This document shows, piece after piece, positions 50,566 through 64,000 of a stretch of 64,000 nucleotides of DNA. The notes below the pieces were generated by a model, which was given only the letters and a program-made list of their open reading frames with translations, was not told where the DNA came from and did not search any database. The position numbers and the translations under genes are program-made. This stretch comes from a virus (lineage: Duplodnaviria > Caudoviricetes): positions 1 to 64,000 of the IMG/VR virus record IMGVR_UViG_3300013382_000001; one strand, written 5' to 3'. Positions within the stretch are counted from its first letter, which is position 1. Each line of letters starts with the position of its first letter.

Positions 50566-50962
50566 ATGATAGGACGGGCTAATATATTAAATAATGTTTC
50601 GGGGGGGGGGGGGGGGGGATCATTGTTGATATCAAAAAGGATATAGACCTTCCAATCAAAGTTGATTTTATACCAACATTTGTTGGTATAAATGATAAAA
50701 CATATAGTGGGTAACTCTTTCGAGATTTATATTAGGTTGTAGTGATGTATACATTATAAATACTGATTTACCTCAAAGTATTTTGTCGGAAGATGTTCAT
50801 ATATCTTATAAATTTACTGACGCGTTAGATTATAGAACTAAAATGATTTGGGTGTATTCAACCACATCTCAAATGTTGAATAGGTATATCGATAACGGAT
50901 CTATATATTCAATATCGCCTATGTCTGATATAGATTTCTTACTTATATGTCAAACGAATTAA
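50566..50962 (+). pseudogene. G18-interrupted small tail-tip gene (phase-variable, OFF)
   Basis: RBS AAGGAG, MIGRANILNNVS then G18 (50601-50618); stops at 50644; other frames give IIVDIKKDIDLPIKVDFIPTFVGI and an open frame 50708-50962. Confidence 0.65.
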
Positions 50963-58868: not shown

Positions 58869-59437
58869 CTACATCCCTCCAATTCTCTCGCCACTACTGG
58901 GCGAATTTGTGTTTTAATTTTATATGAAACTGCTTGAACGGATATTCCTTTCATTGCAGCAATTTCAACGCAATTATATCCTTGTCTAAGGAGCTGAAAT
59001 AATTCTAAGTGAGTGATTTTGCTATTAGAATTATAGACTTTATTGCTTAGCTTCTTTTCGATATTATTAAATGCTTGACTAAGCTCTAACTGATTATATT
59101 GTTTTTCTTCTTCACCATATAATTCTTGCAGTTCAAATTCATCTCCACCTTCGTTCCGCAAAAGTTTATCAAAAGACACTATCTGGATGTCTTTAGGAGT
59201 GGTTTTACGCTTTTGGCTACGAATATATTTATATTTCCCATTATCAAGAGCCTTGCGAACTAATGTAGATAATGCCCCTCTGTTTGAATCCCATGCACAC
59301 ACAGCATAACAATAATATTCGAGCAAAATATCAAGCCACTCATCTTCATTCAATCCATTATCATATAGATATTTATATACTAATTTTATATTATCTTCTG
59401 CAATTTTGCGTTGTTCGTCGGTCATTTTTGTTCGCAT
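58865..59437 (-). CDS. Phage sigma-70-family factor
   Basis: AEDNIKLVY region 2; GYNCVEIAAMKGISVQAVS region 4 HTH. Confidence 0.8.
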   Translation of the reverse strand: MRTKMTDEQRKIAEDNIKLVYKYLYDNGLNEDEWLDILLEYYCYAVCAWDSNRGALSTLVRKALDNGKYKYIRSQKRKTTPKDIQIVSFDKLLRNEGGDEFELQELYGEEEKQYNQLELSQAFNNIEKKLSNKVYNSNSKITHLELFQLLRQGYNCVEIAAMKGISVQAVSYKIKTQIRPVVARELEGCR

Positions 59438-61773
59438 TATTTCACCTCCTCTGTCAATAATTCTTTAAGCCAAGTATCTCTAAGTCTTGTTTCATTTACC
59501 TTAAGAGCATTGCTAATCGTTGCAACATCACCAATCTCAACCAACATTTCTTTGGCTCTTGTGAGCGACATATAGCATAAATTCTTTGATAGCATCCGCT
59601 GATGACTTGGATGAGTTAAGAAAATAACCCCTTTAGCCTCACATCCTTGACTTGCGTGACTGGTACAAGCATATGAAAGAAGTAAATTTTCAAGGTCGGA
59701 TTTACGATATACAATCATTTCTTCGTCAAATTGCACCCATACGTTACCTTTGTTATCAATATCTCGGATAAAGCCAATATCTCCATTGTAAATTGTTGCT
59801 TCTTCAGGCTGTTGATTGTTTAAGGTTATAAGTTTATCTTCTGCTTCTAAGACTCTTTTATCATTAGCACCAAATTCGACTTTAAGTCTATCGATATCAC
59901 CTTGCATTTGAACCGATGTTATCCAATGTCTAAACCCTTCTTCAGTTAAAGCATGATAGTTGTTCTTTTTGTTAATTACTTTGTCTCCTATATGATAGTT
60001 AAGCACCTCCATTGGAACTCCAAGTGACTTTGGCAATTTACGGCTTGCAATATCGTCAATTGGGTCTGCCGGATTATACTTTTTTTGAATCGCTTGATTG
60101 ATAGCATAAGTACCGAACTCACCTTTGTTATATGGCGTAAGGATTAGAATATCCTTAGCACGATACTTTTTTCTAAGTTTATCATACTCTTCCAAGACTT
60201 GTTCAAGTGGGCTATCATTTACTTGAACAAACTTATAATCTTTAATTTTACTTGCATTTTCGCAATTTAACTCGCCTGTACTTGTAAGGTATTCTTTCCC
60301 ATTCCGAGCATCTGAGCCAACTGTAGCAATACCCCCAACACCATAACGGAATACCTTTGTGAGTTGCGCACATGGCACAATATGTGAATCCATAAGGTCT
60401 TGAACTAGATTGCCACATTGAATTGAGGCAAGTTGTGCAGAATCAAATACAAGGATGATTTTACTGCAATCTTCAATATTATTAAGTAGTGTTGAAAATA
60501 AGTTTACATCTACCATTGACACCTCATCAATTACAACTACATCTGTATCGATCATTACACCACTTGCTAATTTGCGGTGAATTGTATTTGCTGCTCGACC
60601 TGTTGTTTCGCGAAGACGCTTAGCTGCAATCCCACTTGGAGCAAGAAGAGTGTAAGATTTGTCATTATCTTCAAGTAAGTCAATAAGGGCTTTAACAGAA
60701 CTTGATTTCCCACTACCTGAACTGCCAATCAACATGCTAAAATCATATTTACATATCAGTTCCAAAATACCCATTTGCTCATTAGTAAGTGTAATACTAT
60801 CATTGGAACGATACTTTTCAATATCAACACTCCAAATTTGAGCATTGTTGTTTCTATTTTTTATCGTCTGTGCAATATTACATTCTGATAAATATGTTGC
60901 CATGAGCGACAACTTTTTTGCACCTTCATCATAGTAAATTTTAGCACTTTTTTGCACCAAATCTACAATATATTCATTGAGTTTTGGATTATATTGATTA
61001 ATTACACTTGCAATATCGGCAGCATCAATTCTTGTGTTACCATCCTCTTCATTACACTCAAGTAGATAACAAGTTAGATACAGACATCTCGCTTCAGAAT
61101 CTTCCCACTTCTCATCGTGTTCACATATTGCCCTATCTGTATTTTGAAAATCTCGCCCAAGTACATCTATCAGTACCTCGTATGGCTTGTTATCAATCAT
61201 GTATTGAGCATTTTTAAGCGTTGAATAAGCCGAGCAAAGTTCCCCACATTCCGAAAATGAAAGTGCATAATCGAGGTTATCAAGGTGGAGTTTATAATAT
61301 TTAAACCGCTCATTGACCTTATTGATATACCCTTTTAATCGAATCTCGGCTACATTATGGATATTCTTGTAGTCAATTTTATCCTGTTCACCCATAAGCA
61401 CTAAACGAATAAAGTTCGGATATGCCTCATGCACATATTGGGCTTGGCTATTAGTCATAAAAGATTTAAGCATTTCAGCTTCTTGTTCATCGGTCATTTC
61501 CTCGATGTCATCTATGTTAAAATCTTCTATCTCTGGGAAGCCTATTAACCAATATTCATAGCCATATGAACCCGTCTTCTCTTCGATTTCAATAGTGTAT
61601 TCCTCTCCCACCTCAAGCAGGCTCAAATCACCTTTTAACGTAAAATTCCCATACTTATTGAGGTGTATCTTATCCATATCTGTATTAGCTGGCACACACC
61701 CATAGATAGAGAATGTACCATCTGCATTTGTAAATACATTGCGTACTACTTTACAACGGATTTTTATTTTCAT
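59437..61773 (-). CDS. recD2: RecD2-like SF1B helicase
   Basis: GSSGSGKS, LAPSGIAAKRL, IDEVSMVD, LTKVFR, YNGDIG, YACTSHASQG, YMSLTRAK. Confidence 0.92.
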   Translation of the reverse strand: MKIKIRCKVVRNVFTNADGTFSIYGCVPANTDMDKIHLNKYGNFTLKGDLSLLEVGEEYTIEIEEKTGSYGYEYWLIGFPEIEDFNIDDIEEMTDEQEAEMLKSFMTNSQAQYVHEAYPNFIRLVLMGEQDKIDYKNIHNVAEIRLKGYINKVNERFKYYKLHLDNLDYALSFSECGELCSAYSTLKNAQYMIDNKPYEVLIDVLGRDFQNTDRAICEHDEKWEDSEARCLYLTCYLLECNEEDGNTRIDAADIASVINQYNPKLNEYIVDLVQKSAKIYYDEGAKKLSLMATYLSECNIAQTIKNRNNNAQIWSVDIEKYRSNDSITLTNEQMGILELICKYDFSMLIGSSGSGKSSSVKALIDLLEDNDKSYTLLAPSGIAAKRLRETTGRAANTIHRKLASGVMIDTDVVVIDEVSMVDVNLFSTLLNNIEDCSKIILVFDSAQLASIQCGNLVQDLMDSHIVPCAQLTKVFRYGVGGIATVGSDARNGKEYLTSTGELNCENASKIKDYKFVQVNDSPLEQVLEEYDKLRKKYRAKDILILTPYNKGEFGTYAINQAIQKKYNPADPIDDIASRKLPKSLGVPMEVLNYHIGDKVINKKNNYHALTEEGFRHWITSVQMQGDIDRLKVEFGANDKRVLEAEDKLITLNNQQPEEATIYNGDIGFIRDIDNKGNVWVQFDEEMIVYRKSDLENLLLSYACTSHASQGCEAKGVIFLTHPSHQRMLSKNLCYMSLTRAKEMLVEIGDVATISNALKVNETRLRDTWLKELLTEEVK

Positions 61774-61799
61774 GTCTACTCCTTTCTCCATCTATGGGT

Positions 61800-61828
61800 A
61801 GTATAACATAGGTCTAAGAGTGTGTCAA
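61800..61828 (-). promoter_or_regulatory. sigmaA promoter with extended -10
   Basis: TTGACA-17 nt-TATACT with TG. Confidence 0.75.
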
Positions 61829-61831
61829 GTG

Positions 61832-63139
61832 TTATTTTTCAAAATCTACTCTTTCTAATGCTTTTTCAAAGGCACCGATTCCACTAAATAAACTTATGAC
61901 ATTCATCCCTGTTATAAAGTCATTAGGATAAGCATCGTGTAAACATTTGTATATCTCTTCAAGCACATTTACGACAATAGAGTTACCTGCTTGTTTGTAG
62001 AGCTGTGAATTACTATTAACCTTTTTGGCTCTCTCAAAGTCCTCATCGCTAAATACCATAAGTCTATAACATTCTTTTGGAGTAAGTTTACGGATTCGGA
62101 AATCTTTTGGCGTTAATACTTTGGGTTGTCTATTTCCACCTTCCATTGTGTTAAGTGTTGGGGATAAACCATCTGAACCATAAACCCTACGAATCTGCTC
62201 ATTTCCCTTTATATCTAATAATCCAAGCATTTGAATTTTATTATGCTCATTTTCACATAATTCACTCACACTAAATGCTGACTTATTTGTATCTATCTGT
62301 GGTGTATTGATAAAAAACTGGTCTACTTTATCTTGTTTAATGTAGTACCTCTCTTCAACCTCATTTTCAAGAAAATCTCTTAATCTTAATCCATTATCAA
62401 AAGGTTTCGGGAATAAACTCGTATCATTTCTATCATAATACTTATTATGTGTGATGTGTCCTGTATAATTTTGGTTATTATCAACATCTTCACGCACAGA
62501 AATAGCATAAATACGCTCTCTATTCTGTGGAATATCATAATTTTTCGCATTTAACACTTGATAATAAGTATTATACCCCATATTTTTCATCTCATCAACA
62601 TAAGTATCAAATACAGGTTTGTGTTTTTTAGATAAGACATTTTTAACGTTCTCCCAAATAACGAATTTTGGTTTACAATGTCTGATAATCTCGACCGAAT
62701 TCCATAAGAGGCTTGAACGAGTTCCAGAACTCTTTACTCCACCATGCTGCTTACCGGAAATTGAAAAACTTTGACAAGGCGATCCGTGTGTAATCAAGTC
62801 AATATTGGTTGGCAGTTTATCAATATCAATCTGTGTAATATCACCAAGATTTAATCTTTCATCTACTCCATGTATAGCACAATAACTCTTTACCGCATAC
62901 TTATCAAATTCACAAAAATTCACTAAATTATAATTCATTTTATACTCCTTATATTCTTTTTTATTATCTTTGCCATTTGTATGACTATCTTTTAGGAGTA
63001 CCCCCCCCCCCCCCGAGCAGCATATCCCACCACAGTTTGCTGTAGTTAGTGTAGTACAAATACCATGAGATAAATCAATTAAATCATATGGCGCAAACAC
63101 ACTTGGAATTTTGCCATACTTATCTATCATTTCTTTCAT
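61832..63139 (-). CDS. Circularly permuted C5-cytosine DNA methyltransferase; internal start at 62938; G14-linked N-terminal TRD-like module
   Basis: FCEFD, GSPCQ, ENV, PQNRER, RKLTPKEC, QAGNS, and motif I SLFSGIGAFE at extreme C-terminus; C14 at 63001-63014 on + strand. Confidence 0.9.
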   Translation of the reverse strand: MKEMIDKYGKIPSVFAPYDLIDLSHGICTTLTTANCGGICCSGGGGVLLKDSHTNGKDNKKEYKEYKMNYNLVNFCEFDKYAVKSYCAIHGVDERLNLGDITQIDIDKLPTNIDLITHGSPCQSFSISGKQHGGVKSSGTRSSLLWNSVEIIRHCKPKFVIWENVKNVLSKKHKPVFDTYVDEMKNMGYNTYYQVLNAKNYDIPQNRERIYAISVREDVDNNQNYTGHITHNKYYDRNDTSLFPKPFDNGLRLRDFLENEVEERYYIKQDKVDQFFINTPQIDTNKSAFSVSELCENEHNKIQMLGLLDIKGNEQIRRVYGSDGLSPTLNTMEGGNRQPKVLTPKDFRIRKLTPKECYRLMVFSDEDFERAKKVNSNSQLYKQAGNSIVVNVLEEIYKCLHDAYPNDFITGMNVISLFSGIGAFEKALERVDFEK

Positions 63140-63157: not shown

Positions 63158-64000
63158 TTATTCTTCCTCCACATCTACATAAGCACTAAGTATATATTCA
63201 AACTCCCCACTTAGCACCCATTTGTCATTAACTTTTTTTCTTTTTTCCTTCGGCTTAAACACGCACTTCATAATACCGCCCATCACATATTTGCCGATAT
63301 TATCTTTTGGTAACGGATGCTCTTCAAAGTATTTCTTATCCATCTTACATTCAATCACACCACCATCATAGAGCCGATAAAGTTTAACAAATGGTGTGCC
63401 ATACTTATTGACTTCGACCCCTTGTAGCGCAAAATAATTCATCGGTGCGCTAAGTGTAGTGAGCATTGTATATCCCATAATCTCGATTTGGTTTTGGATA
63501 AGGGCATATTCACTATCTGGTGGAATGGCATGTTGAGCGAATATCTTGCGACAAAGTGCAAGGTTGTCAAGCTGCGAATATTGTTTTGCGGTTTCTTTAT
63601 CGAAACAACCTTCAACATCAAAGTCGCATGGCTTCTTGAGCGTCTTCTTTGTACCATAGGTGTTGTAGATTTCCTTAGCTATGGTGAGCTGGTTAATTGT
63701 GCCAAATTGGGCAAAGTAGCCGATACGGATAAGTTTGTCAAGTTGTGTTTTGTTAATGCTTAAAGATTTAGCATTAGTCAAGATATCAAAGAAATCTTGC
63801 GGTTGTTCATTTTGTGCATACTCGTATAAGTTGTCACCAATTTGAATATTCATGTCTTTAATTGAGCCAATGCCTTTATAAATTGAATTTTCGCTTTTAT
63901 CCATCCAAAAGTCGCCTTTTGATTTACCAAATACAGGAGGTAAAATCTTGAATCCTTGTTTAATTGCATAATTTGTAATCGCTTGGCTTTTAAGTTTGTC
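63158..64000 (-). CDS. dnaE: DNA polymerase III alpha subunit, C-terminal part (runs off window)
   Basis: ILPPVFGKSK...IYKGIGSIK...LDKLIRIGYF; frame open to window edge. Confidence 0.8.
   Translation of the reverse strand, partial: DKLKSQAITNYAIKQGFKILPPVFGKSKGDFWMDKSENSIYKGIGSIKDMNIQIGDNLYEYAQNEQPQDFFDILTNAKSLSINKTQLDKLIRIGYFAQFGTINQLTIAKEIYNTYGTKKTLKKPCDFDVEGCFDKETAKQYSQLDNLALCRKIFAQHAIPPDSEYALIQNQIEIMGYTMLTTLSAPMNYFALQGVEVNKYGTPFVKLYRLYDGGVIECKMDKKYFEEHPLPKDNIGKYVMGGIMKCVFKPKEKRKKVNDKWVLSGEFEYILSAYVDVEEE

Follow-up and report, generated by a model that had tools for sequence, protein, structure and literature searches.

The motif order of cytosine-5 methyltransferases (C5-MTases) is held to be unusually uniform. 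In the window, the whole 64,000-nt stretch of virus DNA that was analysed, a methyltransferase gene was found whose product (P0002, 368 aa) starts at motif II and carries motif I at its C-terminal end. The question raised by this locus was whether the order reflects a natural circular permutation of a working enzyme or a relic or artefact of assembly. Sequence comparisons indicated that P0002 is apparently a functional, natural and conserved C5-MTase permuted between motifs I and II. The phage is from the gut, and the gene sits in its replication module, with a DnaE polymerase gene on one side and a RecD-like helicase gene on the other. The features of the locus were as follows.

59437..61791, minus strand: RecD-like SF1 helicase (AAA_30, SH3_13, UvrD_C_2), downstream neighbour of the MTase gene.
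61800..61828, minus strand: promoter-like TTGACA-17 nt-TATACT, read by eye, directly 3' of the MTase stop and before the helicase gene.
61832..62938, minus strand: coding sequence of the permuted C5-MTase (P0002, 368 aa plus stop), motif order II-III-IV-V-VI-VII-VIII-TRD-IX-X-linker-I.
61835..61906, minus strand: relocated motif I, MNVISLFSGIGAFEKALERVDFEK, residues 345-368, with strand beta1, the FSGIG SAM loop and helix alphaA.
61907..61939, minus strand: 11-residue linker HDAYPNDFITG, residues 334-344, bridging the former C- and N-termini.
61964..61993, minus strand: motif X, QAGNS (316-320) within QAGNSIVVNV, residues 316-325, where the last helix of canonical enzymes begins.
62051..62092, minus strand: motif IX, RKLTPKECYRLMVF, residues 283-296.
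62096..62491, minus strand: variable region with the target recognition domain (TRD), residues about 150-281, differing in length and content among relatives (one to about three TRD modules).
62513..62527, minus strand: motif VIII, QNRER, residues 138-142.
62645..62653, minus strand: motif VI, ENV, residues 96-98.
62771..62785, minus strand: motif IV, GSPCQ, residues 52-56, with the catalytic Cys55.
62903..62929, minus strand: motif II, NLVNFCEFD, residues 4-12, forming the new N-terminus and strand beta2; E10 aligns with E40 of HhaI.
62945..62950, minus strand: ribosome-binding site AAGGAG, 6 nt 5' of the ATG at 62936-62938.
62939..63139, minus strand: in-frame 67-codon extension, present in only part of the family, without a confident fold and holding a weakly TRD-like stretch (GICTTLTT..GG).
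63001..63014, minus strand: G14 tract inside the extension.
63158..64000, minus strand: C-terminal part of a DnaE-type polymerase (HHH_6), upstream neighbour, running off the window.

The protein started with MNYNLVNFCEFD, which holds motif II, and its stop codon was at 61832-61834. An earlier note on this DNA had read a ribosome-binding site and an ATG at 62938, followed by motifs II, IV, VI, VIII, the TRD, IX, X and a tail with motif I, and each of these was found where it had been placed. The linear I-to-X order was absent from P0002, whose order was II..X and then I. The motif set of the family (I FxGxG, II acidic, IV PC, VI ENV, VIII QxRxR, IX RxLTxxE, X GNS) was complete and aligned with the residues of HhaI, and the catalytic and SAM residues were all in place (E10, D33, P54-C55, E96-N97-V98, Q138/R140/R142, G318-N319-S320 and F351-x-G353-x-G355).

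An HMM of 354 positions was built from the 21 nearest canonical relatives. P0002 gave two matches to it in reversed order, residues 2-333 to positions 24-350 and residues 345-366 to positions 2-23 (i-E 4.7e-6). The same reversed pair was obtained with seven other members of the family, and a canonical control protein gave one match. The split fell at positions 23/24 with nothing lost or repeated, so the protein is of unit length. The reversed-order matches proposed as a check in the earlier note were thus obtained, with the HMM of canonical relatives and not with PF00145 itself. PF00145 scored 234-236 bits against a cut-off of 22 and covered profile positions 21/22-320 of 324, with the first 20 profile positions missing at the N-terminus of P0002; TIGR00675 scored 224 bits against a cut-off of 100.65. 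A phmmer search of the PDB matched residues 9-329 to residues 39-314 of HhaI and, separately, residues 342-364 to residues 9-31, the FxGxG segment. When the last 24 residues were set before the protein start, they reproduced the canonical N-terminus (for example that of P0092) almost residue for residue, and the N-terminus of canonical relatives, MK(V/I)LSLFSGIGAFEKAL, equalled the tail of P0002. The permutation of P0002 is circular and of unit length, with its cut in the loop that separates helix alphaA (motif I) from strand beta2 (motif II).

AlphaFold2 with a 40-row alignment gave a model with pLDDT 78 and pTM 0.82, in which DSSP assigned a strand to residues 345-350 and a helix to residues 356-363, both at pLDDT 85-95. 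In a second run, on a 435-aa form with a different alignment, the strand (E412-417) and the helix (H423-430) had a pLDDT of about 92. The core of the model was superimposed on HhaI with Z 26 and rmsd 2.5 Å over 283 residues, model residues 1-340 lying on HhaI 29-325. Since this match reaches Z 26, the altered motif order changes the topology and not the fold. The AlphaFold check suggested in the earlier note was borne out for the tail, which forms a confident strand and helix; that the strand completes the Rossmann fold, by filling the beta1 slot of the same chain, is what we infer from the DSSP strand, its high pLDDT and the otherwise empty beta1 slot.

P0002 is most probably (about 0.8) a working orphan DNA cytosine-5 methyltransferase, a unit-length permutant whose tail is inserted in cis and which protects the phage DNA. 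Its chain opens with strand beta2 (motif II), and the catalytic motifs IV-VIII, a single TRD and then IX and X follow. What is usually the last helix of these enzymes leads here, by way of the Pro-containing linker of 11 residues, to beta1, the FSGIG loop and helix alphaA at the C-terminal end. The tail would insert in cis as the central part of the Rossmann sheet, where E10 of motif II, D33 of motif III and motif X would form the SAM pocket with it. The enzyme may methylate phage DNA and so protect it from host restriction.

The AlphaFold2 models, being monomers, fit equally well an enzyme that needs tail swapping in a dimer or oligomer for its activity, with beta1-alphaA of one chain filling the slot of another and the multimer obligate. 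A strand at a chain end, tethered by 11 residues, could well be exchanged between chains, and fragments 1-61 and 62-395 of MpeI complemented each other when expressed separately (PMC5944983), which shows that N-terminal SAM-binding pieces can bind in trans. However, the canonical C-terminal helix and N-terminal strand adjoin, so that 11 residues suffice for the tail to insert in cis, and engineered permutants with directly fused termini are active (PMC5944983). No sequence sign of a dimer interface was seen, and an obligate swapped multimer is considered unlikely.

Among the other structural matches, MpeI reached Z 24.5, and DNMT2 and 8yf3, a Cx-SAM enzyme, reached 21 or less. The last two leave room for a use of the fold other than plain DNA m5C protection, with another substrate, as in DNMT2 (tRNA), or another donor, as in the carboxymethyl-transferring 8yf3. 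By far the best matches were nevertheless the bona fide DNA MTases HhaI and MpeI, the identity to HhaI was 33-35% with the TRD included, and modular TRDs such as those of the family are usual in phage DNA MTases; a different substrate or donor is therefore slightly less probable even than the swapped multimer.

Relatives of P0002 were collected from a search of 5.8 billion proteins, of which the best 120 cluster representatives were listed. About 40-42 of these 120, the closest ones, began with MNYNL(V/I)NFCE and ended with SLFSGIGAFEKAL, at identities as low as about 50%, and the next-ranked representatives after about 42 permuted ones were canonical. The members came from independent assemblies (Logan, ENA, NCBI and IMG/VR), and the permuted genes lay in at least four contexts: between DnaE and helicase genes in the order DnaE-MTase-helicase, which is also that of the window (L086, L089), between RecJ and DnaE (L082-L084), and in two others (L087, L088). 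The stop codon in relatives lay 1-9 residues past the tail helix. The pattern S-x-F-S-G-I-G-A-x-E-x-A and the linker Pro were invariant in 28 of 28 permuted sequences. The core identity to canonical metagenomic relatives was 49-59%, the nearest canonical ones being P0077 and P0092. Searches of GenBank phages with near and distant DNA methods revealed no close relative and gave short conserved-motif matches and one unannotated 9-kb faecal contig; blastn gave a short match to rho11s. Four permuted relatives (P0015, P0022, P0027 and P0029) carried an intein whose insertion point in motif IV directly precedes the catalytic Cys (GSP|C...HN|CQSF), with a LAGLIDADG domain in one of the four.

The pN/pS ratio was calculated from seven genes, with the tail taken as 18 codons. 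Motif I in the tail had a pS of 0.59, a pN of 0.039 and a pN/pS of 0.066, compared with 0.084 for motif X, 0.226 for motifs IV-VI and 0.32 for the linker, and the synonymous divergence of the tail was near saturation. Strong purifying selection acts on the C-terminal motif I, whose constraint is close to that of motif X and stronger than that of motifs IV-VI, while the linker is looser.

Comparison of gene ends showed that relatives retain the same Met with a ribosome-binding site before it, even where stop codons lie a short way 5' of them. A promoter-like site after the MTase stop was arranged alike in relatives. The G+C content of the gene was about 0.32, similar to that of the flanking DNA. 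The source record is a 98,184-bp virus genome with direct terminal repeats, rated complete. PF00145 matched one gene in this complete 98-kb genome, the MTase gene, so no second motif I is available there. Mis-assembly of tandem MTase copies, which the earlier note had named as the finding that would undo its reading, was excluded by the single MTase in the complete genome and by the same gene ends in many independent assemblies and contexts.

In motif IX, codon 295 (62054-62056) encoded Val, giving RLMVF instead of RLMGF; Gly stood at this site in at least 90% of the family, and also in relatives 99% identical to P0002. V295 might weaken the allele in the window. A rival reading, in which the gene is a mis-assembly or what is left of a degrading array of tandem MTases and its tail has no function, would agree with V295 and with the real MTase wrecks close in sequence space, such as a prophage remnant in Clostridium faecium (L155), but this reading is largely refuted, and very improbable, given the intact frame with all motifs, the same ends in dozens of independent assemblies, the low pN/pS of the tail at near-saturated synonymous divergence, and a single copy in a complete genome, bounded by a ribosome-binding site, a stop and a promoter-like site.

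The open frame reaches further upstream than the earlier note had it, through the G14 tract to an ATG at 63139 (435 aa). Tract lengths that are not a multiple of 3 away from G14 led to a stop within 2-5 codons, and the 67 codons are in frame with the MTase only because of the length of the tract. The tract length differed among relatives at least 99% identical (P0003, P0004 and P0007), and P0012 and P0017 lacked the extension altogether. BLAST of the extension against the family gave weak matches to the TL..GG piece, the best with an E-value of about 1e-3 and most above 0.1, and residues 1-59 of the 435-aa form had an AF2 pLDDT below 50. With these E-values and this pLDDT, the extension as a functional extra TRD was not supported. 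The 368-aa protein is regarded as the principal product, the extension being an optional addition, and the N-terminus may vary. Besides the G14 tract, a G18 homopolymer was seen at 50601-50618 (plus strand) in this phage of 35% G+C, where none is expected by chance.

Plant DRM enzymes have the motif order VI-X and then I-V, that is, a cut between V and VI; they are eukaryotic and carry UBA domains. P0002 has the X-to-I junction in common with plant DRM (NtDRM, PDB 4onj), and 4onj was matched across the junction by residues 349-431 of the long form with a full-sequence E-value of 6e-5, no single stretch passing the threshold alone. The order of P0002 differs from that of the DRM type in that motifs II-V precede VI, and plant DRM was absent from the best 50 structural matches listed. 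The multispecific C5-MTases of phages hold tandem TRDs between motifs VIII and IX, each with its own target. As in those of Bacillus phages (SPR, phi3T, rho11s), the number of TRD modules varies in the P0002 family, where TL..GG modules were repeated and the variable regions of relatives measured between about 130 and about 300 aa; the copy in the window has one TRD. The canonical C5-MTases of phages and Firmicutes are close to P0002 in the core, as the 49-59% identity given above for metagenomic relatives shows, but differ from it in motif order.

A published scan of 20,677 REBASE C5-MTases for motif X before motif I gave 27 natural permutants, all of them cut in the variable region with IX-X before I-VIII; their uniformity was remarked upon, and the question was raised why other viable topologies are absent in nature (PMC5944983). 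These Type H enzymes (M.BssHII, M.Alw26I, M2.Eco31I, M.Esp3I and M2.BsaI) resemble P0002 in being permuted PF00145 proteins with motif X and then motif I in one chain. However, their cut lies in the variable region and leaves the two structural domains whole, whereas that of P0002 lies inside the SAM-binding subdomain. Type H proteins are recognised by an N-terminus in the variable region and by IX-X before I-VIII, and P0002 starts at motif II and has only motif I after X. The earlier note had proposed a II-X-I class distinct from the known natural permutants, and this was supported: the order is real, of unit length and conserved, and it departs from all natural permutations named in the accessible literature. 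Its list of known permutants (M.BssHII, M.Alw26I/Eco31I and plant DRM) was right as to the cut sites, all of which differ from that of P0002; plant DRM does, however, have the X-to-I junction in common with P0002.

The closest precedents were the engineered cp35M.MpeI and cp33M.SssI, which gave full or nearly full protection in vivo, although cp35M.MpeI was poorly soluble (PMC5944983). As in P0002, their new N-terminus falls just behind the motif I helix, ahead of motif II, and the former ends of the chain have been linked. The cp35 start is at residue 35 of MpeI, which corresponds to the cut site of P0002, because motif I of MpeI spans residues 8-30 (phmmer against the PDB). Unlike P0002, which is natural and has a conserved, Pro-containing 11-residue linker and a large family, they are man-made, with termini directly fused or joined by a designed linker. 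In the open literature, with subscription papers and REBASE outside reach, no natural permutant cut between I and II was found beyond the engineered ones of PMC5944983. The II..X-I order is new as a natural class and not as a viable fold, the precedent found in the literature being engineered only.

The spread of the junction was searched with a 62-residue query (motif X, linker and motif I) against 1.84 billion representatives at 50% identity. This gave 632 matches with E <=1e-3, and about 125 of the best 150 had the whole junction in one stretch. Many of the matches were fragments, and about 20 were full-length II..X-I proteins. The linkers were of two kinds, YPNDF-like and MPYLF-like. One permuted member was in a MAG of Robinsoniella sp. 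(L090), which hints at Lachnospiraceae or other Clostridia as hosts. In five proteins, 60-160 residues beyond motif I were unmatched by the MTase profile; P0166 (540 aa) and P0250 were full II..X-I proteins, P0239, P0228 and P0175 were partial, and a few of the extensions held GGGG/TL TRD-like pieces. Two candidate sets were rejected as permutants: the L091/L092 matches were two separate tandem genes, and L155:2423-2676 (Clostridium faecium N37), a match in an isolate genome, was a prophage remnant with motif I followed directly by an out-of-frame motif X, an internal deletion of a canonical gene.

A phylogenetic tree was constructed from a 251-column alignment of the catalytic core of 20 permuted and 25 canonical proteins, in which the clade of 9 that holds the window's protein had an SH-aLRT of 97. 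A single origin of the II..X-I order was rejected on the core (delta lnL 145, AU p 3e-43), with at least 3 changes forced, although three rows were long-branched. The presence of the order on several branches reflects either several origins or reversions, or recombination among modular genes that mimics multiple origins.

Other arrangements were found near P0002. The MTase at L050:2974-4098 (IMGVR_UViG_3300004782_000003) started just before motif IV (MNKAKVIFHGSPCQ) and ended with motifs I, II and III after X; its residues 9-311 matched HMM positions 69-353 and residues 315-362 matched positions 2-49. Its order, IV..X-I-II-III, is a second unreported topology. Three more arrangements came from matches of the junction search: P0210 (L171:2501-3904), whose complete Type H gene has a similar linker (SYPNV); P0153, with two whole MTase units fused in frame; and L091:1505-3706, with two canonical MTase genes in tandem. 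The fused unit, the tandem pair and the Type H gene are possible stages of permutation by duplication, and together with the L050 gene they agree with the path to permutation cited in PMC5944983, by duplication, fusion and trimming. For P0002, the simplest origin would be that tandem MTase genes fused in frame and the product was then trimmed at either end; the existing fused MTases (P0153) and tandem gene pairs (L091) provide possible precursors. It is suggested tentatively, and with the odds somewhat against it, that the phage C5-MTases near P0002 are a natural record of permutation by duplication, in which the II..X-I order arose, or was transferred by recombination, several times.

The P0002 family, which is abundant in gut phages and has an intact and selected motif I at the C-terminus, is a counter-example to a single natural type of permutation that keeps both domains whole, as found in the survey of PMC5944983. 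With natural proteins, the question of topology becomes testable through SAM affinity, folding and the distinction between monomer and swapped dimer, and the family offers natural scaffolds for split or permuted methyltransferase tools. In annotation, a profile match that begins at position 21-22 makes these enzymes look truncated at the N-terminus, and they could be mistaken for pseudogenes. If the II..X-I order did arise or was transferred several times, a cut in the SAM subdomain would be repeatedly favoured in phages and not merely tolerated, possibly because of easier module exchange or the timing of SAM-site completion.
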